Below, in pieces: positions 45,831 through 64,000 of a stretch of 64,000 nt of DNA; the first letter of the stretch is position 1; every line of letters begins with the position of its first letter. The stretch is from Candidatus Daviesbacteria bacterium (lineage in GTDB: Bacteria > Patescibacteriota > Microgenomatia > Daviesbacterales > UBA10151): positions 71,878 through 135,877 of the forward strand of contig JACOXD010000006.1 of NCBI GenBank assembly GCA_016176465.1, given 5' to 3'. The notes under the pieces are model-generated. The model had not been told where the DNA came from and did no database searches. It saw only the letters and a program-made list of their open reading frames with translations. Position numbers and translations under genes: made by a program.

Positions 45831-45831
45831 T

Positions 45832-46929: not shown

Positions 46930-46943
46930 ATTTAAGTAAACAG

Positions 46944-47834: not shown

Positions 47835-47844
47835 TATAAAATAA

Positions 47845-50359: not shown

Positions 50360-50366
50360 TCTTATT

Positions 50367-51344
50367 ATGTCAAAGAAAGTTCTAATCACTGGGGCAGGAG
50401 GATTTATTGGTTCACACCTGGTAGAAAGGTGTGTACAATTAGGATTCAAAGTTAAAGCTTTTGTTCATTATAACTCTGCTAATCGATGGGGCTGGTTAGA
50501 TAATTCTATACATAAAAAAGAGGTTGAAGTTGTTTCTGGGGATATTCGAGATTTTGACTCAATATATAACTGCCTAAAAAATTGCGACACGGTATTTCAC
50601 CTAGCAGCTCTAACAGGGATTCCCTATTCCTATATCTCACCTCTAGCTTATATCAAAACTAATGTTGAAGGAACTTATAATATTTTAGAGGCTTCCAGAT
50701 TAAGAGATGTTAAAAATATAGTGATAACTTCCACAAGCGAGGTTTATGGGAGCGCGGTGTATACTCCAATTGATGAAAACCATCGACTTTTTGGTCAATC
50801 TCCCTATTCTGCTTCCAAAATTGCTGCTGATCAATTAGCTTTAAGTTATTATTTATCTTTTGGCTTACCAGTAAAAATTGCTAGACCTTTTAACAGTTAT
50901 GGACCAAGGCAGTCGGCCCGCTCAATCATTCCAGCAGTCCTAACTCAAATTCTTTCTGGTGCAAAAAAAATAAGGGTTGGAAATCTTAATACCGCTAGGG
51001 ATTTTACTTATGTTAGTGATACCGTAGAAGGTATAGTGGAAATTAGCAAGTCAAGTCAGTTATTTGGTGAGGTCACTAATATAGGTTCTAATAGTAGCCT
51101 CAAGATGGTTGATTTGGTGAAACTGTTAAGTGATTTAATCGGGATCAAAGTTAAAACAGTAGCAGATCCATCTCGTATCAGACCAGATAAAAGCGAAGTT
51201 GAGAATCTGCTTTGTAATAATTCTAAACTAATCAGACATACCAGCTGGAAGCCAAAGCTTAACTTAGAAGAAGGACTCACAGAAACAATTAAATGGTTTA
51301 AGGAAAATCATCATTTATACAAAGATGAAATTTACAATATTTAG
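50367..51344 (+). CDS. NAD-dependent nucleotide-sugar 4,6-dehydratase/epimerase (extended SDR)
   Basis: VLITGAGGFIGSHLVERC (GxxGxxG), TSTSEVYG, and YSASKIAADQL (YxxxK). Confidence 0.75.
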   Translation: MSKKVLITGAGGFIGSHLVERCVQLGFKVKAFVHYNSANRWGWLDNSIHKKEVEVVSGDIRDFDSIYNCLKNCDTVFHLAALTGIPYSYISPLAYIKTNVEGTYNILEASRLRDVKNIVITSTSEVYGSAVYTPIDENHRLFGQSPYSASKIAADQLALSYYLSFGLPVKIARPFNSYGPRQSARSIIPAVLTQILSGAKKIRVGNLNTARDFTYVSDTVEGIVEISKSSQLFGEVTNIGSNSSLKMVDLVKLLSDLIGIKVKTVADPSRIRPDKSEVENLLCNNSKLIRHTSWKPKLNLEEGLTETIKWFKENHHLYKDEIYNI

Positions 51345-52058
51345 ATGAAAGCTGTTATTTTAGCTGGAGGGTTAGGTTCAAGACTTGCTCCTTTTACTCA
51401 AATAATTCCCAAACCCCTACTTCCTATTGGAGAAAGTTCGGTGTTAGAAATTCAAATCTTAAGTTTAAAAAAACACGGCTTTGATGAAGTCTTTATAGCT
51501 ACTAATTATTTAGCTAAATATGTAAAAGCATTCTTGGGCAAAGGAAAAAAATATGGAATCAAAATTAGCTTTAGTCAAGAGAAAAAACCTCTAGGAACTT
51601 GTGGTCCCATAACACTTTTAAAAAGTAAGCTAACTGAACCTTTTTTTCTATTAAACGGAGATATCCTGACTACTTTAAATTTTAGGAAAGCCTATGATTT
51701 TGCTTTAAAAAATGAAGCAAATTTAGTTGTTGTTACAAAAGAGATTCCTGCCCCATTTGATTTTGGAAACGTAAAATCAAGAGGAGATTATTTAATTGAT
51801 GTTGAAGAAAAACCAAATTTTAAGTTAGAAATACTGGCTGGGATGTATATTATGAAACCAGCTATTTTTGACCTTATTCCTAAAAATACCTACTACGGCA
51901 TTGATATGCTCATTAAAAAGATGGTCTCTAAAAAAATGAAAGTGGGAAGATATTTAATGAAAGAATATTGGCTTGATATAGGTAAAGCTTCCGATTATAC
52001 AATCGCTCAAGAGCAGTACCATAAGAGGTTTAGTAAATTAAAAGATGGCAAAAAATGA
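51345..52058 (+). CDS. Sugar-1-phosphate nucleotidyltransferase (NTP_transferase family)
   Basis: MKAVILAGGLGSRLAPFTQIIPKPLLPIGE is the canonical G-x-G-T-R-L signature region. Confidence 0.8.
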   Translation: MKAVILAGGLGSRLAPFTQIIPKPLLPIGESSVLEIQILSLKKHGFDEVFIATNYLAKYVKAFLGKGKKYGIKISFSQEKKPLGTCGPITLLKSKLTEPFFLLNGDILTTLNFRKAYDFALKNEANLVVVTKEIPAPFDFGNVKSRGDYLIDVEEKPNFKLEILAGMYIMKPAIFDLIPKNTYYGIDMLIKKMVSKKMKVGRYLMKEYWLDIGKASDYTIAQEQYHKRFSKLKDGKK

Positions 52059-52956
52059 TAGGGTTTTAATACTTGGTGGAGCAGGATTTATTGGATCTAA
52101 TATCGCTAAAAAGTTTGTTTCTCAAAATTACAAAGTAACTATAATAGATGGATTCTTACCTCAGACAGGAGCGAATCTAAAAAATCTTCGAAGTATTCTA
52201 AATAAAGTTAAGCTTATTAGGAAAAAGGTTGAGAAGATAGATAATCTAGAAAAGCAAGTGGCAGACAATAATTTGATCATTGACTCTATGGGATGGACAC
52301 GACATATATCCGGCATGGAAAATCCACTTTATGATTTAGAGCTTAACTTACTCTCCCATATAAGCTTAATTAACGCTCTTAGAAAACTGCCAGGAGTAAA
52401 GGTTATATATCTAGGCTCTGAGGGCCAGTATGAACCTTTTGATGTGCAAGGAATTAATAAGCAAGCTGCAGAGACCTATTTTAAAAGTTTCTCAAAGATA
52501 TATGGATTTAGTACTCTTTCACTTCGTATCTCCCATTGTTTTGGGCAAAATCAACCAACTAAGGATACTGATATAGGTTTAGTGGGTTTATTTATTAGAA
52601 ATCTACTCACACATAGATTAATCAGGGTATTTGATAAAGGAAGGAAACGTAACTTTATTTATGTTGAAGACCTTACGGAAATAATCTTTTTACTGTCAAA
52701 GAGAGAATTTAGTGGCTTTTCTTCTCTAGATGTAAACGCTTATAGTATAGTCCTGGAGGAGTTGGCGCAAAAATTGATTAGGATTGTGGGCTTTGGCGAG
52801 TATAAGAAAGAAGTATTACCTAAAAACCTCGTAGTTAATGATAATTATCATAGCTTAGATACAGTAGAGTTAAAAAAAATGATTGGTCAATTTCCTAAAC
52901 ACCAATTTGACAAGGCTCTTATTGCAACTGTTAATTACTTTAAGGAAAACCTATGA
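52045..52956 (+). CDS. NAD-dependent epimerase/dehydratase (SDR)
   Basis: VLILGGAGFIGSNIAKKF Rossmann motif, about 300 aa. Confidence 0.6.
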   Translation: MAKNDRVLILGGAGFIGSNIAKKFVSQNYKVTIIDGFLPQTGANLKNLRSILNKVKLIRKKVEKIDNLEKQVADNNLIIDSMGWTRHISGMENPLYDLELNLLSHISLINALRKLPGVKVIYLGSEGQYEPFDVQGINKQAAETYFKSFSKIYGFSTLSLRISHCFGQNQPTKDTDIGLVGLFIRNLLTHRLIRVFDKGRKRNFIYVEDLTEIIFLLSKREFSGFSSLDVNAYSIVLEELAQKLIRIVGFGEYKKEVLPKNLVVNDNYHSLDTVELKKMIGQFPKHQFDKALIATVNYFKENL

Positions 52957-54047
52957 TTTTACGCGCAGACATTCTGGCTCAATATAAAACTCACAAAAAA
53001 GAAATAAATTCCGCTATACAAAAGGTTTTAAATTCTGGGTATTATATCCTGGGTAAAGAGGTGGAAGGATTTGAAAAGGAATTTGCAAGATATTTAAAAG
53101 TAAAATTTGGGGTTGGAGTAGCATCAGGCACGGATGGATTAATTCTTTCCCTTAAAACTTTAGGTATAGGCGTGGGAGATGAAGTAATCACTAGTGTTTA
53201 TAATACTTTTGCCACTTCATCAGCTATTATTGCTGCTGGAGCAATCCCAAAATTTGTTGATATAGATTACCAAACATTTTTGCTTGATATAAAAAAGATC
53301 CCTTTAGCAATTACAAAAAAAACTAAGGCAATTATTCCTATTCACCTATTTGGAAATGTGGTTGATATCCCTGCTTTAATAAAAATTCTTTCTAAACAAA
53401 TTCCAATTATAGAAGATGCTTGTCAGGCTCATGGAAGCAAAATCAGTGATCAATTTGCCGGATCGATTGCTCAAATTGGGGTTTTTAGTTTTTACCCTAC
53501 CAAAAACTTAGGAGGCTATGGGGATGGAGGCATGGTAGTTACTGATAATAAAAAAATTGAAAAAAGATTAAAACTACTTAGAAACTATGGCATGATAGAT
53601 AAAGATCATATAATCCAACCTGGAGTAAATAGCCTGTTGGATGAGCTACAAGCAGCAATTTTGCAAATAAAGCTTAAATATTTAGAATATGGTAATCAAA
53701 AAAGGCAGGAGATTGTAAAACAATATAAAGCTAAATTAAGATCTGATCTATTTGAATTTCAATTAATTCCTAAAAATGTTTACTGCAACTTTCATATTTT
53801 TGCTGCCAGGTTTAAGAAAAATAGAGCCAAGTTTATTAGTTATCTAACTGAGAAAAAAATTCAAACAAATATTTATTATCCCCTGCCTCTTCATTTACAG
53901 AAAGCATTTCAGTTTTTAGGGTATAAAAAAGACGATTTTCCAATCGCTGAAAGGTTAGCAAAAGAAGCTATTGCTTTACCAATTTACCCGCAGCTTCTAA
54001 AGGAAAATCTTGACTATATAATTTCAACTATTAACTTCTTTAAATGA
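52953..54047 (+). CDS. DegT/DnrJ/EryC1/StrS-family PLP-dependent sugar aminotransferase (ArnB/Per-like)
   Basis: Has GYYILGKEVEGFEKEFARYL, DACQAHGS and the PLP-lysine block FSFYPTKNLGGYGDGGMVVT. Confidence 0.85.
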   Translation: MILRADILAQYKTHKKEINSAIQKVLNSGYYILGKEVEGFEKEFARYLKVKFGVGVASGTDGLILSLKTLGIGVGDEVITSVYNTFATSSAIIAAGAIPKFVDIDYQTFLLDIKKIPLAITKKTKAIIPIHLFGNVVDIPALIKILSKQIPIIEDACQAHGSKISDQFAGSIAQIGVFSFYPTKNLGGYGDGGMVVTDNKKIEKRLKLLRNYGMIDKDHIIQPGVNSLLDELQAAILQIKLKYLEYGNQKRQEIVKQYKAKLRSDLFEFQLIPKNVYCNFHIFAARFKKNRAKFISYLTEKKIQTNIYYPLPLHLQKAFQFLGYKKDDFPIAERLAKEAIALPIYPQLLKENLDYIISTINFFK

Positions 54048-54964
54048 GAATAATCTTAGCTGGTAAACATGAGCTATCTTGCACTCTGTTTGAAATCCTA
54101 AAGAAATCTTTTTCAAAAAACACCCTGGGGTTTATAACCTCTAAATCTGAGGATCAAAAGAGACGTAAATCCCTAAAGCGGTTATTATCTAAACATAAGA
54201 TTTTAGCCTTAAATAAAGATTTTTCGGATCAAGAGCTCAAAAAAGTTATCTTGATATTTAAACCTGATCTAGTTATCTCTGCTGGGTTTGACAAGATTTT
54301 AAAGAGGGATTTAATAAAAAAAATTCCTCTTGCTATTAATATCCACTTCGGGCTATTACCAAAATATAGAGGTTCTTTCTCTATCCCTTGGGCAATCATT
54401 AATGAGGAAAAATATATTGGTATCACAATTCATAAAATTGTTCCCGGAATTGATAGTGGTGAAATAATCTTACAGTCTAAAATTAAAAACGATCCAAATC
54501 TTTCATGTAAACAGATCTATTTTGATGCTGTTAAATATGCTTCATTGCTTACCAAAAAAGTCTTGGACTCAGTTCAAAGAGGCAAGAAATTAATCACTAC
54601 AAGACAAGATACAAAGAAGGCTACTTTTTTCCCCTTTAAAAAGCCTTATGATTTTCAAATAGATTGGAGCAGTCGTGCAAAGTTTGTCTTTAATTTAATA
54701 AGGGCAGCTTTTTTCCCTCCTTATGATCCAGCCTATTCAATCTTACAGGGCAGAAAAATATTTTTTTACTTTCCCATAAATTTAAAAAAAGTTAAACTTA
54801 AATTTTCTCCTGGGGAAATTATTTATTATCAAAAAAATTACTACATAGCTTGTCAAGATGGATTAATTAAGCCACAAAAAGTTAGGGTAGCGGCCAGAGT
54901 TTATAACTTTAATCAATATGTTAAGCTAGAGAAATTAGAATGTCACCCAGCTCAATCTCTGTAG
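54044..54964 (+). CDS. Formyltransferase-family protein with C-terminal domain (sugar N-formyltransferase, ArnA-N/Fmt-like)
   Basis: INIHFGLLPKYRGSFSIPWAIINEEKYIGITIHKIVPGIDSGEII, i.e. the N..H..LP.YRG formyl-transfer signature plus the ligand-binding Asp. Confidence 0.75.
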   Translation: MRIILAGKHELSCTLFEILKKSFSKNTLGFITSKSEDQKRRKSLKRLLSKHKILALNKDFSDQELKKVILIFKPDLVISAGFDKILKRDLIKKIPLAINIHFGLLPKYRGSFSIPWAIINEEKYIGITIHKIVPGIDSGEIILQSKIKNDPNLSCKQIYFDAVKYASLLTKKVLDSVQRGKKLITTRQDTKKATFFPFKKPYDFQIDWSSRAKFVFNLIRAAFFPPYDPAYSILQGRKIFFYFPINLKKVKLKFSPGEIIYYQKNYYIACQDGLIKPQKVRVAARVYNFNQYVKLEKLECHPAQSL

Positions 54965-55629
54965 TTATCCCTATTTATAACGAAGCCAAATTAATAAACA
55001 AATCAATCCCTCTAATAAACTTTTTCTTGAAAAAAAACTTTAAAGACTATGAAATTATTATTATTGAAAGTGGTAGCACTGATAACTCCTACCAACTATC
55101 TGAGAAACTCACAAAAAAGTATCCAAAGATTAAACTTATTTCTCAAAAACGCCGTGAGGGCTTTGGGTCTGCTCTTAGATTAGGTTTTCAAAAGGTAAAT
55201 AAAAAGTTAGTCTGGCCTTTAGTAATTGATCTTCCTTACCCTTTAGAGTCGATACTTAAGGCTCTTCCCTATTTTGATAGCTACGATTGTATTTTAAGCT
55301 ATAGATCATCTGATAACCGAAGCTTTTCTAGAAAGCTGAAATCTACTATTTATAACTTTTTAGCTAAAATAATCCTAAATTTGCCAATGAAGCATATTAA
55401 TTCTGCTTTTAAGGTTTATAAAAAATCAGCTTTGGATAAGATGAAACTAACTTCTAGCGGATGGTTAATTGATTCCGAGATACTTTATCAGATAAAAAAA
55501 CAAAAGATATCTTATATTGAAATACCAATAGGGTTAAAGAAAAGAACAATGGGTAAATCCTCTATTAATCTAGCTACTCCAATTCAGTTAATATTTGATT
55601 TAATTTCTTTCCGCTTAAAACAAAAATGA
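54940..55629 (+). CDS. GT2 glycosyltransferase, polyprenyl-phosphate sugar transferase-like (ArnC/DPM1-like)
   Basis: ISVVIPIYNEAKLI...EIIIIESGSTDNS; small (229 aa); adjacent to the aminotransferase/formyltransferase genes as arnC is in arn operons. Confidence 0.65.
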   Translation: MSPSSISVVIPIYNEAKLINKSIPLINFFLKKNFKDYEIIIIESGSTDNSYQLSEKLTKKYPKIKLISQKRREGFGSALRLGFQKVNKKLVWPLVIDLPYPLESILKALPYFDSYDCILSYRSSDNRSFSRKLKSTIYNFLAKIILNLPMKHINSAFKVYKKSALDKMKLTSSGWLIDSEILYQIKKQKISYIEIPIGLKKRTMGKSSINLATPIQLIFDLISFRLKQK

Positions 55630-57248
55630 ATCTAAAAATATTTTTACTAATCCTAAGCTTGGGAATATTGATTCACTTTCTTCCAAATTTAAATATCCCC
55701 TTACATAGTGATGTTACCTGGTATTTCAGGTTGCAAGCTACCAATAATCCTAAATTAATAGAATCTATTCCCGAGGGCTTTAAAGAATTTGGAGCCTATC
55801 CAATGCCTATATTTGAATCCATAGTCAATTGGTACCAACTAACAGGCAGGATTAATGTTTTGGACTATTTATCTTTAAGACTCTTTGCTTTTTTAGCAGG
55901 TGCTGATGCGAATTTATGGAGGTTTTTTTATATACTGATTCTTTCATCAAGCATCACTCTTTTTTATCTGATTTTAAAAAAACTAAATATTCCAGCTAAA
56001 ATTGCCTTGTTTTTTTCTATAGGATTTTTCTTTATTCCTATTGATATTTGGACTGACTATAAAAGCGCAGAACCAAAAGCACTCCTTTTTTTAATGTTAA
56101 GTCTTTATTTTGGATTAACCTCCAAAGATAGGTTACATTCTTTACTAAGCTGCACTTCCTTGCTGGTGGCACTTTTATTTAAAGAAACCTTTATCCTATC
56201 CTTACCTGCTATCTTGGGACTTATTCTTTGGAAGGAAAAAGTTATAGACCAGATAAAAAGACCTGTAGTTGTGACTGTACTTCCTTATTTAGTCGTAGTC
56301 CTTATTATAGCTTTATTTAGCCTATCTTTTAGATTTTTAATTCCAATGAAAACATCTGGTTATGTAATTGCGCCCTTTTCTCAGTTAGATTTTTTATCTT
56401 ATCTTTTAAAATTCACTCCATCTTTGATTCCCGGGCTTTTATTAGGAATAGGACCATGGCTAATTACTTTATCTTTGATCTTAATTTTTATTAGTTTTAA
56501 ATACCTTAAAATGGAAAAGGTTAAGAAATTTTACCTAAATGCTTCATTCTTAACTCTTATCCTTATTCTTCTTTGCACAATTTTACTTAATATCTTGCTT
56601 TATTATTTAACAAATAGAGATTTTAGAGATAGATACTTACTGCCTAGCAATTTTTTTACTGCTTTAACTCTAGCGCTACTTACTATACCACTAACTACTC
56701 AACTTTACTCTAAGTTAAAAAAAAATAAAGCCAAACTATCTATTATTTATCTATCTATTTTGATGATTTTATTTTGTTTTCAATTTATTAAGGTGATTGA
56801 TGTTTCATTCCAAAATAGAATTGACCAAAACGCTTGGCAAAGTTTAATAAATCAAGTAAAAATTAAGGTTCCAAAAAATGGACATATTTTAATCTCAATA
56901 AATGATCCTTTCCTTATTGAAACAGCCCAAAGTCTTGAAGCTAATACACTGTTTTTAGGTAGATATGACCTAACTTATCATCTAGTAGCAGCCAGGGAAT
57001 TAAAAGAATACCAGAAAGGAAAAGATTACTTAGCTTTTTTAATTTCCTCGTTTAATAAAGATAGAAAGTCGCTACCTCTTAAGAAAGAAGGTAAAATTCT
57101 AACTATTCATCTTGAAAGACCCAAAACAACTATCCCTTATTTCCCATTTAGTCTAAAAAGCTTAATTGTTAACCCAAAATCTTACCTATACCAGCGATTT
57201 ATAAAAAGTAAACAACCCTATTTAAAATACTCAATCCTTATTTCATAA
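55626..57248 (+). CDS. Polytopic membrane protein, putative GT-C glycosyltransferase (ArnT/PMT-like), low confidence
   Basis: 540 aa with at least 11 predicted TM helices. Its position directly after the ArnC-like GT2 suggests the role; no unambiguous DE motif was seen. Confidence 0.35.
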   Translation: MNLKIFLLILSLGILIHFLPNLNIPLHSDVTWYFRLQATNNPKLIESIPEGFKEFGAYPMPIFESIVNWYQLTGRINVLDYLSLRLFAFLAGADANLWRFFYILILSSSITLFYLILKKLNIPAKIALFFSIGFFFIPIDIWTDYKSAEPKALLFLMLSLYFGLTSKDRLHSLLSCTSLLVALLFKETFILSLPAILGLILWKEKVIDQIKRPVVVTVLPYLVVVLIIALFSLSFRFLIPMKTSGYVIAPFSQLDFLSYLLKFTPSLIPGLLLGIGPWLITLSLILIFISFKYLKMEKVKKFYLNASFLTLILILLCTILLNILLYYLTNRDFRDRYLLPSNFFTALTLALLTIPLTTQLYSKLKKNKAKLSIIYLSILMILFCFQFIKVIDVSFQNRIDQNAWQSLINQVKIKVPKNGHILISINDPFLIETAQSLEANTLFLGRYDLTYHLVAARELKEYQKGKDYLAFLISSFNKDRKSLPLKKEGKILTIHLERPKTTIPYFPFSLKSLIVNPKSYLYQRFIKSKQPYLKYSILIS

Positions 57249-57354
57249 AAAGTTATTTTTTAAATATTTTGACTTTTACTTGAAGCTAAAGCTTGTAAAA
57301 AAATACCTTATTGCATTTTTTTTTGAAATAACATATTCTAAAAAAGCCACTCAC

Positions 57355-58464
57355 ATGCCCAAAAAGAGAGAATTAAAAATAGGTAATAAAATTATAGATG
57401 ACTCTTCTGACTGCTTTGTTGTAGCTGAGATTGGACAAAATCACCAAGGAGATGTTGAGGTTTGCAAAAGACTTTTTGAGGCTGCCAAGTTCTGTGGTGC
57501 TGATGCGGTAAAATTGCAAAAAAGAAATAATCGAACTTTATATACTAGAAAATTCTTTGACTCCCCGTATAACTTTGAAAATGCTTTTGGCCCAACCTAT
57601 GGCAAGCATAGACAAGCTCTGGAATTTAATAAAAAGGAGTATAGAAAGCTTAAAAAATATGCTGAAAAGTTAGGTTTAATTTTTTTTGCAACTGCCTGGG
57701 ATGAAAGCAGCGGCGACTTTTTGGAAGATTTAGATGTTCCAGCTTTCAAAATTGCTTCAGCAGATCTTATCAACACTCCCCTTTTAAAATATATCGCCAA
57801 ATTTAAAAAACCAATGATTGTAAGTACAGGAGCAGCCACCATAGACGATGTCAAAAGGGCTTATCAAGAAGTAATGCCAATAAACAACCAGCTTTCTTTA
57901 CTCCACTGCACTGCTGTTTATCCTGCCTCAGCAGAGTATCTAAACTTAAAAGTCATTGAAACTTACCGCCAAGAGTTTCCGGAGATTGTCATTGGATTTT
58001 CCAACCATTTTAACGGCATTTCTGTTGACCCAGTGGCTTACTGTTTAGGAGCCCGAATTATTGAAAAACATTTTACTTTAAATCGGGCAATGCAAGGCTC
58101 AGATCATTCTTTTTCGCTAGAGTTTGAAGGAATGAGGAAGCTGGTTAGGGATCTAAGAAGAGTCCGCCTGGCACTGGGAGATGGCTTAAAAAAGTTTTAT
58201 CCTGAGGAAGAACCAGCTAAGTATAGAATGGGAAAGTGCATTGTCACTACAAAATCACTGCCTGCAGGGCATATCTTGACAAAAAAAGATCTGGCTCTAA
58301 AATCACCCTGTGAAGGTCTACCCCCTTATTTATTAGATGAGTTAATTGGCAAAAAAACTATTGTTGCCTTAAAAACAGACCAGCCTCTTTCTCTAAAGCA
58401 TTTAGAATCTTTTAAAAAGCCTGCCAGAAAGACAAATGGTCATCAATCCATCTTCCCTACTTAA
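57355..58464 (+). CDS. NeuB-family sialic-acid-type (ulosonic acid) synthase with C-terminal SAF domain
   Basis: CFVVAEIGQNHQGDVEVCKRLFEAAKFCGADAVKLQKR (the AEIGxNHNG...A.K.Q NeuB signature) and a C-terminal SAF/antifreeze-like block GKCIVTTKSLPAGHILTKKDL. The likely start is ATG at 57355 (MPKKREL). Confidence 0.85.
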   Translation: MPKKRELKIGNKIIDDSSDCFVVAEIGQNHQGDVEVCKRLFEAAKFCGADAVKLQKRNNRTLYTRKFFDSPYNFENAFGPTYGKHRQALEFNKKEYRKLKKYAEKLGLIFFATAWDESSGDFLEDLDVPAFKIASADLINTPLLKYIAKFKKPMIVSTGAATIDDVKRAYQEVMPINNQLSLLHCTAVYPASAEYLNLKVIETYRQEFPEIVIGFSNHFNGISVDPVAYCLGARIIEKHFTLNRAMQGSDHSFSLEFEGMRKLVRDLRRVRLALGDGLKKFYPEEEPAKYRMGKCIVTTKSLPAGHILTKKDLALKSPCEGLPPYLLDELIGKKTIVALKTDQPLSLKHLESFKKPARKTNGHQSIFPT

Positions 58465-59362
58465 AGACTTAAATAAAAATAACCTTAAGTCCAAAGTCAT
58501 TCAGTCTGATAAGTTTGGTAGAGCATTTTTGGCTTTAAATCGAATTACCCAAACAGGCAAGGTTGAACAACACGATCAAGCATCTGATATTACTTTTATT
58601 CTCCAAGGAGAAGCCAAATTGGAAAAAGATGGAGAAATTGAGGATAAAACCTTAAGATCTTTACATGAATGGCAGGGAACAAAAATTAAAAATGGAAGAT
58701 ACTTAGCTGTTAAAAAAGGAGACTTATTAATTATTGAGCCTGGAAGTCCTCATCGGTTTATTATTACAAGATCATCCCAGTTAGTCTATTTAACTTTTAA
58801 GAAATATCTTTCTGATTATATAGAAATAGAAAAATTAGATCCTAATCTAATTGAAAAAATAAAAAAGATTGAAGGAATAATAATGGATGTTGACGGGACA
58901 ATGACTGATGGAAAGGTTTTGGTAAATGATCAGGGAGAGGAGTTTGCCTCTTTTTCTCGGATTGACTCTTTAGCGCTTTTACCCTGGCAAGGAATGGGTA
59001 AAAAAGTAGGCGTTATCTCTAGAGAAGAGATCTCTATTGCCAGTGCTAGAGCCAAAAAGTTAAAGATTAATTGTGTCCAAAATATTAAGGATAAACTTCA
59101 AGCTGCAGAAAAAATGATTAAAGCTTGGAAGCTAAGCTGGGATCAAGTTTGTTTTATAGGAGATGATGTTAATGATATTTCCCTTTTGCAAAAGGTTGGC
59201 TTTTCTACTTGTCCAAAAGATGCCCAGCCTCAAGTTTTAGAAGTTGTTGATTTAGTACTTCCTAAAAAAAGAGGAGACAGTGTTATAAGAGAACTGCTAG
59301 ATTTAATATTTTTAGTACAACTTGGCAAATATCCAGAAGTTTACGAGAGAGAAAAATCTTAA
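58436..59362 (+). CDS. Cupin domain fused to a KdsC-like HAD phosphatase (ulosonate-phosphate phosphatase)
   Basis: The C-terminal half IMDVDGTMTDGKVLVNDQGEEFASFSRIDSLALLP...CFIGDDVNDISLL matches KdsC/YrbI-type HAD (DxDG...GDD.ND). The N-terminal ~140 aa has a cupin-like beta-barrel block (ITFILQGEAKLEKDGE...LLIIEPGSPHRF). Confidence 0.65.
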   Translation: MVINPSSLLKDLNKNNLKSKVIQSDKFGRAFLALNRITQTGKVEQHDQASDITFILQGEAKLEKDGEIEDKTLRSLHEWQGTKIKNGRYLAVKKGDLLIIEPGSPHRFIITRSSQLVYLTFKKYLSDYIEIEKLDPNLIEKIKKIEGIIMDVDGTMTDGKVLVNDQGEEFASFSRIDSLALLPWQGMGKKVGVISREEISIASARAKKLKINCVQNIKDKLQAAEKMIKAWKLSWDQVCFIGDDVNDISLLQKVGFSTCPKDAQPQVLEVVDLVLPKKRGDSVIRELLDLIFLVQLGKYPEVYEREKS

Positions 59363-60189
59363 TGGAAAGATTTAGATTAGATGGAAAAATAGCGGTTGTA
59401 ACAGGAGCGCTTGGGTTACTTGGACCTACTTTTTGTGAAGGTTTGTTGGAGGCTGGTGCAACAGTTATAGGAATTGACTTAACAACCCAAGTCCCAGAAA
59501 GATTTAGGGTTTTACAAGAAAGGTTTGGTGATGATAAAGCAGGAGTGGTAAGAGCAGATATTACTTATAAATCTGAAGTTGATGAGGCTCTGGCTGCATG
59601 TATTAGAAGGTTTGGTGTTCCAGCTATTCTAGTAAATGCTGCTGGGATAGATAAGCCTCCCTTGGCAAGTGCCAGATCCTACCCGCTTGAAGAGATTCCC
59701 CTGGAGGTAAATAGAAGATTTCTGGAGGTTAATGTGCTTGGAACATTTAGGATGATGCAGGTTTTTGGGGGTGCGATGAGAAAGCATGAAATCAGGGGAA
59801 GTATTATTAATATTGGTTCACAATATGCTGATGTTGTACCTGACCCTCATTTTTATGATCATTTAAAAGGATTTTTAAAACTCCCTATATATGGGGCATC
59901 CAAAGCTGCTTTGATTGAACTAACAAGAGAGTTCGCAGTTCACTTTGGAAGATACGGAATTAGAGTTAACGCACTTTCTCCTGGAGGTATTTATAATGAA
60001 CAAAAACCACAAGATCCAGAGTTTTTAAGAAAGTTTTCTGAAAGAGTTCCGTTAGTTAGAATGGAATATCCTCATAGAATGGGCTTTGCTCATGAGTTAA
60101 TTGGGCCACTTTTATTTTTAGCTTCTGAGGCTTCATCTTATATGACTGGAGAAAATTTAAGAGTTAATGGAGGATTTACTGCTCTCTAA
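59362..60189 (+). CDS. Short-chain dehydrogenase/reductase (classical SDR)
   Basis: Has GKIAVVTGALGLLG (TGxxxGxG), NAAG and YGASKAALIELTRE (YxxxK). Local GC is about 50%, much higher than the window average. Confidence 0.8.
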   Translation: MERFRLDGKIAVVTGALGLLGPTFCEGLLEAGATVIGIDLTTQVPERFRVLQERFGDDKAGVVRADITYKSEVDEALAACIRRFGVPAILVNAAGIDKPPLASARSYPLEEIPLEVNRRFLEVNVLGTFRMMQVFGGAMRKHEIRGSIINIGSQYADVVPDPHFYDHLKGFLKLPIYGASKAALIELTREFAVHFGRYGIRVNALSPGGIYNEQKPQDPEFLRKFSERVPLVRMEYPHRMGFAHELIGPLLFLASEASSYMTGENLRVNGGFTAL

Positions 60190-60194
60190 ATTTA

Positions 60195-60941
60195 ATGGTT
60201 AGAATTAAAAAAAATAAAAACAACTCTATACCCAAAGTACTAGGGGTGGTGGGAGCCAGATCTGGCTCAAAATCTATTCCTTATAAAAATATTTATCCCC
60301 TAGCTGGAAAACCCTTAATGGCCTGGATTATTGAGGCTGCTAAAAATGCCAAATTTATCACCAGACTGATACTTTCAACAGACTCTGAAGAGTTTGCTAA
60401 AATAGGCAGGATCTACGGCGCAGAAACGCCTTTTTTAAGGCCTTTAGAACTGGCAACAGATGAGGCAGATGATATATCCTATCTGACCCATGCTGTTTCC
60501 TACCTTGAAAAAAATGAAAACTGGAAACCAGATATTATCTTAAGGCTTCCTGCAACCTCTCCTTTTTGTAGTAGTGAAAGTATAGATGCTTGCATCCAAA
60601 TTTTATTAGATGATCCTAAAGCTTCCTCTGCTAGAACTATAAAAAAAACTCCTAAGCACCCTTTTAAACAATGGAAGATAGAGGGAGATGAGCTAAAACC
60701 TTTTTTGCCAAAGGAAATTACAGGCTTAAAAGAACCGTCTCAAGCCTCAAGGCACTCTTTTCCCCCAGCTTATGCCCATGTCGATGTAATAGCTGTCCGC
60801 TATAATACTTTAATGAAAGAAGGGCTACTGACTGGAAAAAGAACCCGTTTTGTCTTGTTAAATAGTGAGGCGGCTATTGATATAGATGATTTAAATGATT
60901 TTTTACTTGCAGAAATAATTATTAAAAGAAAACTTAGCTAG
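60195..60941 (+). CDS. CMP-ulosonic acid synthetase (acylneuraminate/Kdo cytidylyltransferase, CTP_transf_3 family)
   Basis: VLGVVGARSGSKSIPYKNIYPLAGKPLMAWII...LSTDSEEFAKIGRIYGAE is the canonical NeuA/KdsB N-terminal signature. Confidence 0.8.
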   Translation: MVRIKKNKNNSIPKVLGVVGARSGSKSIPYKNIYPLAGKPLMAWIIEAAKNAKFITRLILSTDSEEFAKIGRIYGAETPFLRPLELATDEADDISYLTHAVSYLEKNENWKPDIILRLPATSPFCSSESIDACIQILLDDPKASSARTIKKTPKHPFKQWKIEGDELKPFLPKEITGLKEPSQASRHSFPPAYAHVDVIAVRYNTLMKEGLLTGKRTRFVLLNSEAAIDIDDLNDFLLAEIIIKRKLS

Positions 60942-60948
60942 ATTAGAT

Positions 60949-62835
60949 ATGGAGACAGAAGGAAAATTGCAATTTATCCCTATTTCTGAAATTGAAAGAG
61001 TTTGGGATGGTAAAATCTTAGCAGATATTTTAAGAATTAATAGCCTGTCTATGATTATGGAGGCAGGTTCTGGACATCCTGGGACTTGTTTAAGTAGCGC
61101 CGAGATTATTGCCACCTTATTTTCTTCTGAGTTAGTTAACCCTAATGATTTTGCTAAAGATCCTTCAGATATTTTCTTTTCTTCAAAGGGGCATGATGCT
61201 CCTTTAATTTATGCTGCCTTAATAGCTACAGGTAGATTGCCGGAGGACAATTTACATAAATTAAGAAGATTAAATGGTCTACCAGGGCATCCTGATATTC
61301 ATACTCCAGGCATTACTACAAATACTGGTTCTTTAGGTATGGGATTATCTAAAGCTGCTGGAATGATTGAAGCAAATCGTTTACAAGGTAAAAAAGGCAG
61401 AGTATTTGTTTTACTGGGGGATGGTGAGCTACAAGAAGGACAAAATTATGAAGCGTTAAGATATGCTACTCAACACAAAATGGGTGAGCTGATAGCTATA
61501 GTAGACCATAATAAAATACAATCTGACACTTGGGTTTGGCAAGTTGGAGACTTAGGAGATCTCGTTGGAAAGTTTAAAAGTTTTGGTTGGGAAGTTGCTA
61601 GGTGTGATGGAAATAATGTTGATGAGCTTCTAGAAGCTTTTGACCACTTTAGAGACTTTACAGATAAACCAAAAATTCTAATTGCTGATACTCTAAAAGG
61701 GGCCGGAGTTACATTTATGGAGTCCTCAAACTTTGGTGAGGAGCTGCAATTTTATCCTTTCCACTCAGGAGCCCCAAGTCTAGAACACTACCAGAAAGCA
61801 ATTACTGAATTAAGAGAAAGAATAGATTCAAAATTAGTCTTATTAGATAGAGATCCAATCCAGTTAGTTTTAAAAGAGATTCCCCATCGAGCTAGCTTAG
61901 TTAATCCTGAGCGTTTAATTTTAAGTTATGGAAATCATTTGGCTACACTGGCTAATACTCATCCAGATATTATTGTTTTAGATGCAGATTTACTAAAGGA
62001 CCATAATTTACAACCCTTTCAAGAAGTTGCACCCGATAGATTTATAGAGTGCGGTATTTCTGAACAACATATGACTTCAGTTGCCGGAGGATTAGCCAGA
62101 AAAGGAAATCTACCTATAACCCATACCTTTGCTGCTTTTCAGTTGAGAGCTTTAGAGCAAATGTATAACAATGCTACAGAAGAAGGGAAGATTATATATG
62201 TAGGATCACTAGCTGGACTTTTGCCAGGAGGTCCGGGACACTCTCATCAAGCTGTAATGGATATTGCCTCCTTTAGAGCAATTCCAAACCTTACTATGAT
62301 TGAACCAAGTTGCGAGCAAGAAGTAAGAATGGCTTTAGACTGGGCAGTGAAAGAAAATCCTCAAAGTAGCTATCTTCGCTTAGTGAGCATTCCTGTTGAG
62401 ACTCCATATATCCTTCCACAGGAATATAAATTAACACTTGGCAGAGGGATAGAACTAATATCTGGAGATGATGCTGTTTTATTTGCTTATGGCCCAGTAA
62501 TGCTTTCTGAGGCAACAAGAGCTTCCATATTTTTAAGAAATCTAGGGATATCTTTATCTGTCATTAACCTTCCCTGGTTAAACAGAGTTGATTTAAGATG
62601 GTTAAAAAACACTTTATTACCTTACCAAATAGTGTTCACTTTAGATGATCACTACATCAGCGGGGGTCAAGGGGAATTAATTGCTGTAAATGTCGCCAGA
62701 ATGTCTGGGAAAAAACCTAAAGTAATTTCTTTTGGGGTGGAGGAGATTCCTGTTTGTGGATTAAATACTGAGGTCCTAAAATACCATGGTCTTGATGCAG
62801 AAAGTTTAGCAGAGAAGGCAAGAAAGATCCTTTAA
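60949..62835 (+). CDS. Transketolase (fused N-terminal TPP-binding and C-terminal pyrimidine/transketolase-C domains, 628 aa)
   Basis: Has GSGHPGTCLSSAEIIATLF (the TPP-binding GHPG motif), GDGELQEGQNYEA, and a C-terminal Pyr/TK-C region. Confidence 0.7.
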   Translation: METEGKLQFIPISEIERVWDGKILADILRINSLSMIMEAGSGHPGTCLSSAEIIATLFSSELVNPNDFAKDPSDIFFSSKGHDAPLIYAALIATGRLPEDNLHKLRRLNGLPGHPDIHTPGITTNTGSLGMGLSKAAGMIEANRLQGKKGRVFVLLGDGELQEGQNYEALRYATQHKMGELIAIVDHNKIQSDTWVWQVGDLGDLVGKFKSFGWEVARCDGNNVDELLEAFDHFRDFTDKPKILIADTLKGAGVTFMESSNFGEELQFYPFHSGAPSLEHYQKAITELRERIDSKLVLLDRDPIQLVLKEIPHRASLVNPERLILSYGNHLATLANTHPDIIVLDADLLKDHNLQPFQEVAPDRFIECGISEQHMTSVAGGLARKGNLPITHTFAAFQLRALEQMYNNATEEGKIIYVGSLAGLLPGGPGHSHQAVMDIASFRAIPNLTMIEPSCEQEVRMALDWAVKENPQSSYLRLVSIPVETPYILPQEYKLTLGRGIELISGDDAVLFAYGPVMLSEATRASIFLRNLGISLSVINLPWLNRVDLRWLKNTLLPYQIVFTLDDHYISGGQGELIAVNVARMSGKKPKVISFGVEEIPVCGLNTEVLKYHGLDAESLAEKARKIL

Positions 62836-64000
62836 ACTGAAACTATTTCTAAAATTTTATTAGCAAATCTCTCTGTTGATCTGCCATCATTCATCTGCTT
62901 CCAAACCCTAGATGCTGCCCACATTCTTTCTCTAGTGGCTCGATCATTTATAATTGAATTGAGTATTCGAGGGAAATCTCTCCAGCCTCTAACTACCGCA
63001 CTTGATCCATCTAAAACCACACTTGGATCTGGAGGAAGCTCGTTTGTCCACTCAGGTCTTAGTCTCATATTAGCAGGAATCATGGCGTGAACTACTAGTC
63101 TTGGTCCTTTTCCTCCTCTCATCCCCTTATCAAAAATAGCCTCTCTTCCCGTTGTTGAGGTATCTGTTACTACAATATCTGCAGCCTGCCTAATCTCATC
63201 CATTGAGTAGCGCAATCTTCCATCTTTATTTCTGATCATAGTATCAACCCCATGATTTCCTAAACTTTCTAAAACTCCAGCATATCTGGCAGCAATTAAA
63301 GGATCATTATACTCATTTGGATGAACTCTGAAAGTAAATTTATATCTTTGGGTATCTAGTTCTTTTATTGCATGTTGAACTAAGTCATTTCCGGTATGGA
63401 AGGTAGCTTCTGTTTTAGTTGCAGCATAAACTATAAACCACTCATCATCTTCAACTCCCAACTCTTTTCTAACTCTTTCATAATTCTCTTCCGTATCTTC
63501 ATAAAAAAACCTATCATCAGCCGGATTACCGACCACAACTCCTCTTCCTTGGTAAGCGCTTACATATTTTATACTTTGCTCTAAAGATCTCTCACTGGCA
63601 AAAAATGCAAAATCAGGCACTACCAACAATCCTTGTCTAGCTAAAACCCGATCATAATATGCCATAAAGGGAGAATTATCTTCATACTTAATAGTTCTTT
63701 CTCCCCTACTTATTCCCTGTGCTATTAAGACTTGTTCTAGATGTTTAGTTGGATCTGAACCACTGACTACTAAATCACCTGTTAACCGCATTAAGTCCTT
63801 AGAAGGTGAAAATCTAGTTGCTCTTAATCCTAGCGAATCAATCTTTCCCTGAAGCGATCTGCTTGCTGCCCCTCCGGCCACTACAAAAACGTCTACGGCA
63901 TCTGCCAGAAGTAATTCTATAACGGGTATTCCAGCTTTATAAGCTCCCTCATCATATACCCCCCAAATAATTCTTTGTCTATCATGATATTCTCTAGGAA
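62832..64000 (-). CDS. Putative KpsC/KpsS-like (Capsule_synth) ulosonic-acid transferase, 5' end beyond the window
   Basis: The frame stays open from the reported GTG (63881) to the window edge. It contains LVQHAIKELD (QxxxKE) followed 13 aa later by FRVHPNEY (HP), the two motifs associated with KpsC/KpsS beta-Kdo transferases. GC is about 45%. Confidence 0.4.
   Translation of the reverse strand, partial: PREYHDRQRIIWGVYDEGAYKAGIPVIELLLADAVDVFVVAGGAASRSLQGKIDSLGLRATRFSPSKDLMRLTGDLVVSGSDPTKHLEQVLIAQGISRGERTIKYEDNSPFMAYYDRVLARQGLLVVPDFAFFASERSLEQSIKYVSAYQGRGVVVGNPADDRFFYEDTEENYERVRKELGVEDDEWFIVYAATKTEATFHTGNDLVQHAIKELDTQRYKFTFRVHPNEYNDPLIAARYAGVLESLGNHGVDTMIRNKDGRLRYSMDEIRQAADIVVTDTSTTGREAIFDKGMRGGKGPRLVVHAMIPANMRLRPEWTNELPPDPSVVLDGSSAVVRGWRDFPRILNSIINDRATRERMWAASRVWKQMNDGRSTERFANKILEIVSV

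Follow-up and report, generated by a model that had tools for sequence, protein, structure and literature searches.

The segment between positions 57,355 and 64,000 of the window (the whole stretch of 64,000 nucleotides analysed here) is best read, with slightly better than even confidence, as one copy of a module for the synthesis and CMP-activation of a 3-deoxy-2-ulosonic acid of the KDN/sialic acid type, with the last ORF and a paralogue as candidate transferases. Six closely packed genes are present, from the NeuB gene to the convergent last ORF (Table 1). The genes from NeuB to the transketolase (TK) overlap or are separated by gaps of at most 7 bases, and the stop of the last ORF overlaps that of the TK. 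All ORFs listed in the sequence-only reading were recovered at their positions, and their domains were confirmed by Pfam matches which, for these predicted proteins, are far beyond chance. No description of the module was found in the open-access text searched; it is widespread in many uncultured bacteria and apparently not yet described.

Table 1. Predicted features of the module and of the gene directly upstream (positions in the window).
Feature	Position	Strand	Remarks
Polytopic membrane protein, 540 aa, directly 5' of NeuB	55626..57248	+	module membership uncertain
NeuB-SAF synthase	57355..58464	+	likely start ATG 57355; mechanical ORF from TTG 57280
Cupin part of cupin::HAD fusion, YhcH/YjgK (DUF386)-like	58436..58840	+	N-terminal domain
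KdsC-type (C0 HAD) ulosonate-phosphate phosphatase part of fusion	58841..59362	+	TIGR01670
Classical SDR	59362..60189	+	adh_short_C2
NeuA/KdsB/PseF-type CMP-ulosonate synthetase (cytidylyltransferase, CMPt)	60195..60941	+	CTP_transf_3
Variant single-chain transketolase (TK), 628 aa	60949..62835	+	three TK domains
TagB/TagF-like GT-B transferase (TagF1)	62832..64000	-	PF04464; window end cuts ORF

A complete set for making, dephosphorylating and CMP-activating a 3-deoxy-2-ulosonic acid, as proposed earlier, is present by domain homology. By homology, the predicted NeuB-type synthase (Pfam NeuB 7e-77, SAF 1.6e-8) condenses PEP with an aldose. Its nearest solved structure is SpsE of B. subtilis (1VLI, 7e-52), and it scored below the cutoffs of the NCBIfam equivalogs NeuB/LegI (287, cutoff 399.65) and PseI (236, cutoff 340.25). 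The homologue from locus L010 aligns to it from residue 26 onwards. The NeuB proteins of the module, including that of the window, share the motif GFSNHFNGI, whose S-x-H-x-x-G-I pattern resembles animal NANS.

The second gene encodes a fusion protein of 308 aa with both a cupin (Cupin_2 9.5e-7) and a HAD domain (Hydrolase_3 1.8e-11). The HAD domain possesses the nucleophile motif DVDGT, exceeded the cutoff of the KdsC-subfamily model TIGR01670 (120.5 bits, cutoff 106.95) and did not reach that of the KDN-9-P phosphatase model (116 bits, cutoff 180); its best PDB match is the KDN-9-P phosphatase BT1713 (3E81, 3e-24). A phosphatase of the KdsC/KDN-9-P type implies a phosphorylated condensation product, and BT1713 as closest solved relative is consistent with this earlier suggestion. 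The cytidylyltransferase (CTP_transf_3 1.4e-19; PseF model 113.6 bits, below the cutoff of 205.7) is predicted by homology to be of the NeuA type and to activate the ulosonic acid.

Two known routes, the KDN pathway of B. thetaiotaomicron (KDN-9-P synthase BT1714, KDN-9-P phosphatase BT1713 and CMP-KDN synthetase) and the Neu5Ac-9-P route of animals (NANS/NANP/CMAS), resemble the module in that the synthase belongs to the NeuB family, the phosphatase is a C0 HAD enzyme of the KdsC type and the cytidylyltransferase is of the NeuA type. In contrast to these routes, the module has an additional obligatory SDR and variant TK, usually also an aldehyde dehydrogenase, and every module protein lies below the curated NCBIfam equivalog cutoffs. 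The phosphatase-cupin fusion is likewise foreign to both routes and occurs in this lineage only, the full-length protein being present in 11 protein clusters among 5.8 billion.

The cupin domain matched Cupin_2 (28.9 bits, cutoff 27.2) and stayed under the cutoff of DUF386 (19.9 bits, cutoff 26.5). Its AlphaFold model (pLDDT 88.9) had the best PDB fold matches to YjgK (9JRR) and YhcH (1S4C/1JOP), with E-values from 1.4e-5 to 4e-5 and only a slight lead over other cupins. In these folds and in the sub-threshold DUF386 match, the domain resembles YhcH (NanQ), a DUF386 protein that is encoded in the nan operon and acts as a Neu5Ac 'openase', opening a nonulosonic acid ring (PMC8141875). YhcH serves a catabolic aldolase, whereas the YhcH-like cupin here, so classed by a small margin, shares its chain with a biosynthetic phosphatase.

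NeuB, cupin-HAD, SDR, cytidylyltransferase, TK and TagF1 co-occur in six CPR-type genomes at 32-74% identity, with rearranged gene order and differing accessory genes. Since the TK is syntenic in every related locus, it is functionally tied to the ulosonate set, as had been supposed from its position. The SDR, too, keeps its synteny in all of the related loci. The cytidylyltransferase gene lies directly 5' of that of the variant TK in most of 27 mapped loci, and the SDR adjoins an aldehyde dehydrogenase (Aldedh) in most of them. In an independent metagenome sample of TK loci of at least 8 kb, the 15 loci with a variant TK contained CMPt (14/15), SDR (13/15), Aldedh (11/15) and NeuB (11/15), whereas none of these four occurred in the 14 loci with a canonical TK, one of which had a KdsC-like HAD match. 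As shown by comparative genomics, SDR and variant TK are integral to the module, and so is the aldehyde dehydrogenase in most other genomes; none was detected in the window or in locus L005.

The variant TKs form a large family that extends beyond CPR. The best 120 matches, the window's own protein aside, are 50-68% identical and include Sung-, Doudna-, Buchanan-, Curtiss- and Giovannonibacteria, a Spirochaetales MAG and Cyanosarcina. The Spirochaetales locus shows the same order (NeuB-HAD-SDR-Aldedh-CMPt-TK). A Sungiibacteriota genome has a TagF-like protein, CMPt, a CMPt::SDR fusion, Aldedh, KDPG aldolase and TK, and the Cyanosarcina locus has Aldedh, CMPt, TK and HAD_2. In some loci, CMPt, TK and Aldedh, together with SDR and/or phosphatase, were found without NeuB within 8-10 kb.

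The SDR (Pfam adh_short_C2 7e-38) had its best NCBIfam matches to models of sugar and sugar-acid dehydrogenases, namely glucose 1-dehydrogenase, gluconate 5-dehydrogenase, mannonate oxidoreductase and KduD, and the aldehyde dehydrogenases to 2,5-dioxovalerate and alpha-ketoglutarate-semialdehyde dehydrogenases, whose substrates are omega-aldehydes of 2-keto acids; for both, all subfamily matches are below the curated cutoffs and barely ahead of alternatives. Gluconate 5-dehydrogenase and KduD both oxidise the carbon adjoining the terminal CH2OH of a sugar acid.

The variant TK carries Transketolase_N, Transket_pyr and Transketolase_C on a single chain, scored under every NCBIfam transketolase cutoff (395 vs 488) and has human TKT as nearest solved structure (3OOY, 4e-75). 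With canonical TKs (human TKT 3OOY/4KXU; bacterial short or split-chain enzymes) it has in common the arrangement of three domains, the GDGx..N motif for ThDP, the Glu that activates the cofactor and the four histidines of the active site that handle the ketol donor. H37, H77, H110, H258 and E366 (human numbering) are kept in the window protein and in 40/40 variant TKs from metagenomes. The residues of phosphate and C2-OH recognition (R318, S345, H416, D424 and R474), by contrast, are replaced throughout the family, which also differs from canonical TKs in being genomically locked to a cytidylyltransferase. In the window protein the changes are S345 to D, H416 to L, D424 to P and R474 to S, and R318 is paired, according to the alignment used, with Ile or with a gap. 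In the 40 variant TKs, R318 is hydrophobic or small, S345 is Asp, H416 is L/Y/M, R474 is S/N/I or another residue, and D424 is P in 38, T in one and a gap in one partial sequence; the canonical short TKs of the same scan have R, S/A/T, H, D and R at the five positions in 26/26. The predicted variant TK has thus, as shown by comparative genomics, kept the ThDP and ketol-transfer residues and lost the sugar-phosphate pocket, although the loss of the canonical residues is no proof against phosphate being bound elsewhere. Because the C1-hydroxyl-binding histidines are kept, it is most probably still a ketol transferase.

It is tentatively proposed that SDR and TK remodel the side chain of the CMP-ulosonate. 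The terminal phosphate would be removed first, and the SDR would then oxidise the penultimate side-chain carbon, yielding a terminal ketol, which the TK may cleave off as a C2 unit and pass to an acceptor. The remaining aldehyde would be oxidised to a carboxylate by the aldehyde dehydrogenase in loci that have one; as the window and L005 have none, trimming would end there in the aldehyde. The kept TK histidines, the SDR models, the adjacency of SDR and Aldedh, the Aldedh models and the loci without NeuB are consistent with such trimming. Furthermore, by reasoning from Fischer projections, the tail of 8-keto-KDN presumably has the D-threo configuration required of TK donors. The order NeuB-HAD-SDR-Ald-CMPt-TK, which places the TK outside the SDR-Ald interval, counts against the proposal, as does its need for an acceptor of the C2 unit.

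The sequence-only reading had the TK supply a sugar-phosphate precursor. Synteny upholds its tie to the ulosonate set, but a role with phosphorylated sugars is weakened by the replaced substrate-phosphate residues. Spelled out, the TK would form the aldose phosphate for NeuB, e.g. erythrose-4-P or ribose-5-P from fructose-6-P or sedoheptulose-7-P, and the SDR (with the aldehyde dehydrogenase, if present) would later convert the terminal CH2OH, once dephosphorylated, into a carboxylate. This simple linear order employs every enzyme and suits a TK that is encoded last in the operon. Nearly all loci contain a phosphatase of the KdsC type or HAD_2, and a HAD_2 gene that comes after the TK gene or overlaps it, as in at least six loci, hints that a TK-related intermediate is phosphorylated. 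Nevertheless, precursor supply is rather unlikely: R318, H416 and R474, together with the Asp that recognises the C2-OH, have given way to other residues in 40/40 family members, and S345, which binds phosphate in canonical TKs, is Asp, whereas the canonical TKs scanned alongside retain their phosphate residues. In addition, the aldose phosphates made by a TK are only ordinary central metabolites, and loci without NeuB within 8-10 kb keep TK, cytidylyltransferase, Aldedh and usually the SDR.

Chain extension is less probable still. Here the SDR would turn the terminal CH2OH of the ulosonate, once dephosphorylated, into an aldehyde, to which the TK would add a C2 ketol, giving an 11-carbon (or n+2) ulosonic acid; we know of no such sugar. 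The loss of the phosphate site with retention of the ketol-transfer residues would fit, as would the window, where no aldehyde dehydrogenase competes for the aldehyde. In 11/15 loci, however, TK and aldehyde dehydrogenase occur together and would compete for one aldehyde, and the donor ketose is normally phosphorylated and would need the lost site. That the TK is the ordinary pentose-phosphate enzyme of the genome and a chance neighbour of a glycan locus, as the plain annotation 'transketolase' in the sources and the small CPR genomes, often with one TK, might suggest, is close to refuted by the systematically replaced substrate site, the scores below every curated TK cutoff, the 14/15 versus 0/14 loci with CMPt nearby, and a synteny with the cytidylyltransferase that persists in CPR, spirochaete and cyanobacterial loci although they are rearranged.

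The last ORF, extended past the window end, encodes a protein of 433 aa (P0001; 388 residues inside the window; 5 clusters in the database) with a match to PF04464 Glyphos_transf (TagB/TagF; 2.2e-9), which is above the gathering score in 5/5 family members. R269-x-H271-P272, VVTDTST and VGNP..D are invariant in this family, and the model shows a GT-B fold (pLDDT 80). TagF1 and its paralogue just past the window end (TagF2) are candidate transferases for the activated sugar. Genetic precedent comes from the TagB-domain nonulosonic-acid transferases of Tannerella, the knock-outs of which lose terminal Pse/Leg (PMC5420450). Like TagF1, the T. forsythia proteins Tanf_01245, TFUB4_00887 and BFO_1060 are GT-B proteins of the TagB/TagF type with an HP motif and a CMP-nonulosonate pathway alongside. 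The TagF1 and BFO_1060-like TagF2 families matched each other in hhalign (probability 97.6%). With the BFO_1060 model NF046086 (NCBIfam), the best match among TagF1 family members had an E-value of 1.3e-7 and that of TagF2 one of 3.6e-15, the scores of 15-56 bits being far under the cutoff of 200 bits. Instead of the D/E-D/E-G motif of the Tannerella type, the TagF1 family has an invariant E151-D152 and no Gly.

In another possible but improbable reading, the last ORF encodes a genuine transferase of the TagF type for polyol or sugar phosphates, which uses a CDP-activated donor for a teichoic-acid-like polymer, and the CMP-ulosonate is transferred by the paralogue or another enzyme. PF04464, the sole Pfam family matched, suggests a CDP-polyol phosphotransferase by default, and its match takes in the HP motif and the half that binds the donor, as in TagF/TagB CDP-glycerol glycerophosphotransferases (TagF 3L7I-L). 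TagF2 is the more widespread module partner (10 loci vs 6) and scores higher with the BFO_1060 model (56 vs 15 bits). A negative precedent is the TagB-like SpsB of B. subtilis, encoded beside a legionaminic acid pathway, since the transfer of Leg did not need SpsB (PMC7439481). On the other hand, no TagD/TarI-type gene for CDP-polyol synthesis was found in the window or in L002, nor a CDP-glycerol synthesis gene nearby. In six genomes the last ORF keeps strict synteny with the module, and 4/5 TagF1 family members have weak matches to the BFO_1060 model. TagF1 further differs from TagF/TagB by an N-terminal domain outside the Pfam match in 4/5 members and by lacking an invariant His in its N-terminal half; TagF structures rank 37th among its fold matches.

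For TagF1 as transferase of the CMP-sugar, the idea of a cytidine-nucleotide-activated donor stays plausible, while the assignment to the KpsC/KpsS type (retaining beta-Kdo transferases) is refuted at the sequence level and has next to no probability. The latter was founded on a QxxxKE and HP motif pair in VQHAIKELDTQRYKFTFRVHPNEY. Both strings exist, and RxHP is invariant, with the QxxxKE-like string 12 residues upstream, but QHAIKE is conserved in no TagF1 homologue, and the two strings are no meaningful pair of motifs. The motif of beta-Kdo transferases is QXXXD with an Asp nucleophile (PMC10148158, PMC12887879), which lies about 34 residues before HP. The sequence-only reading had named a lack of Capsule_synth similarity as evidence against its assignment, and PF05159 gave no match even at E<=10 in the last ORF and four homologues. 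With KpsC/KpsS/WbbB/KrkA (GT107/GT99/GT140), the last ORF shares the cytidine-binding motif (K/R)XHP; in contrast to them it has no QXXXD motif and a generic GT-B fold, with no KpsC, WbbB or KrkA structure among its top 50 fold matches. Comparison by hhalign with a Capsule_synth-like family of related loci gave a probability of 2%. A different family in non-CPR copies of the module, designated unk582, does show Capsule_synth similarity.

The 540-aa protein encoded upstream of NeuB has about nine hydrophobic segments; the Pfam scan assigned it to no family, and it was unrelated to the soluble unk582 family. At the same place before NeuB, L010 has a homologue with 31% identity. This membrane protein is possibly associated with the module and may be glycan polymerase- or ligase-like.

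The module comprises the last five genes of a plus-strand run of overlapping or almost abutting genes (44955-62835), and it is followed by a convergent open reading frame (ORF), designated TagF1, which continues beyond the window. The sequence-only reading had described this gene set at 57355-64000 correctly, with domain matches far beyond chance. Public proteins identical to those of the window bear the label Candidatus Daviesbacteria, a lineage of the candidate phyla radiation (CPR). The module is best read as a pathway to a CMP-ulosonate to which a thiamine-dependent step has been added; it is widespread and hidden behind generic annotation. None of the five module proteins reached a curated equivalog cutoff in NCBIfam, and the only subfamily threshold passed was that of KdsC by the HAD domain. 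Promoter and terminator sites at 57-64 kb were no more numerous than in shuffled sequence.

Positions of the module genes, candidate transferases and genes of the adjoining glycan island (window coordinates unless a locus is given)
Feature	Position	Strand	Remarks
NeuB + SAF	57280/57355-58464	+	NeuB 258.6 bits, SAF 35.4 bits, both above cutoffs
Cupin::HAD fusion	58436-59362	+	308 aa
Classical SDR	59362-60189	+	
CTP_transf_3 cytidylyltransferase	60195-60941	+	71.2 vs cutoff 22.6 bits
Transketolase	60949-62835	+	628 aa, all three transketolase domains in one protein
TagF1	62832 to beyond window end	-	convergent, stop overlaps transketolase stop
TagF2, home genome	L002:3881-5236	- (of window)	451 aa, ~2.3-3.6 kb past window end; PF04464 24.7 bits
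unk582 family	L015:1720-3378, L016:10663-12357, L034:11847-13577, L051:12630-14375, and others		
PMT_2-type GT-C	30674-32068		glycan island
Carbamoyltransferase	33216-34970		glycan island
Double-GT4 protein	35642-37975		777 aa; glycan island
Formyltransferase-like genes (two)	47845-48606, 54044-54964		glycan island

The synthase was assigned to the NeuB family by its PF03102 TIM-barrel and a C-terminal SAF/AFP-like domain. It scored below the equivalogs of the Neu5Ac/Leg synthases (TIGR03569, 287.4 vs 399.65 bits) and of the Pse synthases (TIGR03586, 236.3 vs 340.25 bits), and its nearest solved relative is SpsE of B. subtilis. The HAD domain falls within the KdsC-type C0 HAD phosphatases (TIGR01670, 120.5 vs 106.95 bits) and carries the DxDxT nucleophile motif as DVDGT. 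Its best solved match is the KDN-9-phosphate phosphatase BT1713, whose residues E56, R64 and K67, presumably specificity residues, are aligned with E, R and K; the score for the corresponding equivalog stays below the cutoff (NF058599, 116.2 vs 180 bits). The cytidylyltransferase belongs to the CMP-ulosonate synthetases (NeuA/KdsB/PseF) according to PF02348, and the N-terminal 'ARxGSKxxxxKN' loop was found as GARSGSKSIPYKN; its score lies under the PseF equivalog (113.6 vs 205.7 bits). Homology of these three enzymes thus bears out the proposed set for making, dephosphorylating and CMP-activating an ulosonate.

The cupin::HAD fusion is scarce (11 clusters). The model of the cupin domain (pLDDT 89) gave YjgK and YhcH as top fold matches by a narrow margin, but its score for their family DUF386 remained below the gathering threshold (PF04074, 19.9 vs 26.5 bits). 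YhcH is a ring opener of Neu5Ac (PMC8141875).

The transketolase possesses three transketolase domains, the ThDP-binding GDG..N motif and all catalytic His and Glu residues, and its nearest solved relative is human transketolase. It scored below the NCBIfam equivalogs NF004559 (394.8 vs 488 bits), NF004556 (265.9 vs 575 bits) and TIGR00232 (184.5 vs 682 bits), and five relatives likewise stayed under these transketolase cutoffs. Forty full-length members of this variant family from a metagenome scan were aligned to human TKT, whose numbering is used here. H37, H77, H110, H258 and E366, which serve cofactor binding and ketol handling, are kept in all forty. The phosphate-site residues R318, S345, H416 and R474 and the C2-OH residue D424 are replaced in all of them (one partial sequence has a gap at 424): position 345 is always Asp, H416 is exchanged for L, Y or M, and D424 for Pro in 38 of the 40 and for Thr in one. 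The window enzyme has Ile or a gap at 318, D at 345, L at 416, P at 424 and S at 474. In canonical short transketolases the substrate phosphate and C2-OH residues are kept (26/26). Since the cofactor and ketol residues are retained and the phosphate and C2-OH residues replaced, the variant, judged from its sequence, is still a ketol transferase but is probably not built for sugar phosphates. A sub-variant with 40-47% identity to the window enzyme (loci L038, L041, L044, L046, L047, L048, L054 and L059) has Ile at position 474 and, at 416, Tyr where the window enzyme has Leu. It often occurs with a cytidylyltransferase and TagF2, and without NeuB or SDR in the flanks at hand; it may represent a second specificity.

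NeuB, cupin-HAD, SDR, cytidylyltransferase, transketolase and a TagF-like ORF were found together in five further genomes by tblastn (32-74% identity; NeuB is cut by the contig end in one). Gene order varies among the six genomes, and an aldehyde dehydrogenase adjoins the SDR in four of them; the window contains none. Variable accessories are APH-type kinases with a HAD_2 phosphatase, a DHDPS/NanA-like or KDPG-type aldolase, and an MR_MLE dehydratase with an ApbA reductase. The closest module copies lie in three public MAGs titled 'uncultured Gammaproteobacteria bacterium' (L011-L013, on the same contigs as L005-L007), and their module proteins are nearest to CPR of the Microgenomates type; the label looks like a placeholder.

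Homologues of the window transketolase with 50-57% identity are very numerous and occur in many CPR phyla, in a Spirochaetales MAG (order NeuB-HAD-SDR-Aldedh-CMPt-TK, where Aldedh is the aldehyde dehydrogenase, CMPt the cytidylyltransferase and TK the transketolase) and in the cyanobacterium Cyanosarcina (Aldedh, CMPt, TK, HAD_2). A metagenome scan with the transketolase profile matched at least 600 stretches, and 80 loci were returned. Among the variant loci of at least 8 kb, a module-type cytidylyltransferase was present in 14 of 15, an SDR in 13, an aldehyde dehydrogenase in 11 and NeuB in 11 of the 15; each of these four was missing from all 14 canonical loci of that size from the same scan. 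Partnership of the variant transketolase with a CMP-sugar synthetase is obligatory. The commonest order is NeuB-KdsC-SDR-Ald-CMPt-TK-(HAD_2), Ald again being the aldehyde dehydrogenase, and within flanks of 8-10 kb some loci keep cytidylyltransferase, transketolase and aldehyde dehydrogenase, usually with the SDR, without NeuB.

A HAD_2 phosphatase resembling phosphoglycolate phosphatases directly follows or overlaps the variant transketolase in at least six loci (L007, L010, L016, L021, L034, L051), where it mostly takes the place of the KdsC-type enzyme; in L007 and L010 the two phosphatases coexist, accompanied by two or three APH-type kinases. The Sungiibacteriota genome CP066690.1 (locus L014) encodes a TagF-like protein, a cytidylyltransferase, a natural cytidylyltransferase-SDR fusion of 531 aa (L014:2854-4449), an aldehyde dehydrogenase, a KDPG-type aldolase in the place of NeuB and the transketolase, with separate E1-alpha/E1-beta-like ThDP genes further along. 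The fusion suggests that the SDR step is adjacent to the CMP-activated sugar or acts on it.

As homology indicates, PEP and an aldose, probably phosphorylated, are condensed to an ulosonate phosphate, which is then dephosphorylated and CMP-activated. The side chain would be remodelled by the SDR and the transketolase, together with the aldehyde dehydrogenase where present. The nearest NCBIfam models of the SDR include gluconate 5-dehydrogenase and KduD, which oxidise the carbon beside the terminal CH2OH of a sugar acid. On stereochemical grounds, once the SDR had oxidised a dephosphorylated KDN-type tail, the tail would end in a ketol of the D-threo configuration that transketolase donors require. 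Cleavage of this ketol by the transketolase would leave an omega-aldehyde as substrate for the aldehyde dehydrogenase; the co-occurring enzyme best resembles 2,5-dioxovalerate and alpha-ketoglutarate-semialdehyde dehydrogenases. Such side-chain remodelling accounts for the lost phosphate site, the adjacency of SDR and aldehyde dehydrogenase, and the loci that retain cytidylyltransferase, transketolase and aldehyde dehydrogenase without NeuB. It leaves the C2 acceptor, the gene order and the missing aldehyde dehydrogenase of the window unexplained.

Two rival functions of the transketolase are the supply of a precursor, as the sequence-only reading had suggested, and the extension of the sugar by a C2 unit. 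In a de novo route, the transketolase would build a ketose, and SDR and aldehyde dehydrogenase would oxidise its C1, giving a 2-ulosonic acid. This route is less parsimonious, because most loci contain NeuB yet a single cytidylyltransferase, and because a sugar phosphate would have to serve as the acceptor. Decarboxylation of a 2-keto acid at C2 of the ulosonate is unlikely, since the cytidylyltransferase needs the intact 2-keto acid and the histidines binding the C1 hydroxyl of the donor are conserved. A housekeeping transketolase is contradicted by synteny and by the replaced substrate residues of the active site.

As a reading that we regard as possible rather than probable, the variant family may perform thiamine-dependent tailoring of free or CMP-linked ulosonic acids, trimming two carbons from their glycerol-like side chain (or adding two). 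This could give a hitherto unrecognised class of acidic sugars, e.g. 7-carbon ulosonic or ulosaric acids, which would decorate many uncultured bacteria, CPR, spirochaetes and cyanobacteria among them, on their surfaces. Nonulosonic and related acidic sugars influence the recognition of bacterial surfaces. To our knowledge, none of the known Neu5Ac, KDN, Pse, Leg and Kdo routes includes a thiamine-dependent step. Open-access full texts yielded nothing relevant on a transketolase combined with NeuB, nonulosonic acid, or both ulosonic acid and a cytidylyltransferase, and a 2026 review of sialic-acid pathways does not mention transketolase. The significance lies in a transketolase without a sugar-phosphate pocket that is locked to a CMP-sugar synthetase. 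If it tailors the sugar, the plain name 'transketolase' in current annotation masks an enzyme activity along with an entire class of surface sugars, and this would be the first case of a transketolase family drawn into nonulosonic-acid biosynthesis. Metabolic reconstructions of CPR often take any transketolase as evidence of the pentose-phosphate pathway, and the variant family may therefore be mis-scored in them.

The sequence-only reading had advised extending the contig past the window end; the home genome was followed for 8 kb, and the complete last ORF was obtained (P0001, 433 aa). It has only four relatives (P0002-P0005) in 5.8 billion clusters, and a search of genome contigs with the family profile returned only the three MAGs already known. 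R269-x-H271-P272, VVTDTST and VGNP..D are invariant in all five members. PF04464 (TagB/TagF) exceeds its gathering score of 22.1 in each of them (36.7, 25.4, 57.0, 23.2 and 22.8 bits). H271 and H294 are the only invariant histidines, and the N-terminal half contains none; the catalytic His of the TagF acceptor domain is H444. The AlphaFold model (pLDDT 80) shows a generic GT-B fold with TagF among the matches, and neither the ORF nor its family profile matched a PDB sequence.

This ORF had been taken for a KpsC/KpsS-like transferase on account of QHAIKE and an HP motif, with missing Capsule_synth similarity named as the refuting result. Retaining beta-Kdo transferases are defined by QXXXD, which provides the Asp nucleophile, and (K/R)XHP (PMC10148158, PMC12887879); QXXXD was expected ~34 residues ahead of HP. 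The QHAIKE of the window lacks the Asp, lies 12 residues ahead of HP and is conserved in none of the homologues. R269-V-H271-P272 does satisfy the CMP-binding motif (K/R)XHP, but this is also common to sialyltransferases (PMC10148158, PMC12887879) and therefore not diagnostic. Capsule_synth PF05159 gave no match at E<=10 in P0001-P0005, KpsC and WbbB structures are absent from the best 50 fold matches, and hhalign to a Capsule_synth-like family also argues against the assignment. Consequently, KpsC/KpsS identity is ruled out, and a cytidine-nucleotide-type GT-B enzyme remains. A precedent for such an enzyme exists in Tannerella forsythia, whose TagB-domain proteins are needed for the transfer of Pse/Leg derivatives (PMC5420450), and four of the five TagF1 members weakly match the family of BFO_1060 from this organism (NF046086; P0001 15.1 bits, best member E 1.3e-7, cutoff 200).

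Past the window end, the home genome encodes a sugar-1-P nucleotidylyltransferase, a second TagF-like gene (TagF2), a GT4 and a flippase. TagF2 matches BFO_1060_trans (3.6e-15, 56 bits), is homologous to the last ORF with aligned HP motifs (hhalign probability 97.6%), and forms one operon with it and the nucleotidylyltransferase. Since the TagF2 family accompanies the variant-transketolase module in more loci than TagF1 does, the true transferase of the CMP-sugar may be TagF2. In non-CPR module copies, a ~570-aa soluble family ('unk582') without a strong Pfam match follows the transketolase or precedes NeuB. It carries an invariant 'V-x-W-D-A-Q' 37 residues ahead of 'R-x-H-P', matches Capsule_synth weakly but consistently (4/4 tested, E 4e-4 to 0.014) and is unrelated to the window's last ORF (hhalign). 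It is a candidate KpsC/KpsS-like retaining ulosonate transferase of this pathway elsewhere, not in the window. TagB/TagF-like and Capsule_synth-like proteins are thereby added as alternative candidate transferases for one module.

The module forms the end of a ~43-kb glycan island (20749-57248 plus the module). Across the module, the G+C content climbs from ~0.31 (54-58 kb) to 0.36-0.39 (58-64 kb) in 54001-64000, perhaps because the module has another origin or another codon usage. Besides the tabulated genes, the island holds two DegT aminotransferases, a GNAT, NDP-sugar dehydratase/epimerases and several GT2s, and this content points to an amino-deoxy sugar, N-formylated or N-acylated, within the same glycan. 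Two neighbouring ORFs of ~960 aa lie on the minus strand at 37972-43706, one without a Pfam family and the other with only a weak PTPS_related membrane-domain match; an 888-aa ORF (28015-30681) likewise has no family. The leucyl-tRNA synthetase (14116-16484, minus strand) appears as a 615-aa ORF beginning in the editing domain and an overlapping upstream ORF of 188 aa, and is either a split gene or the result of a frameshift.
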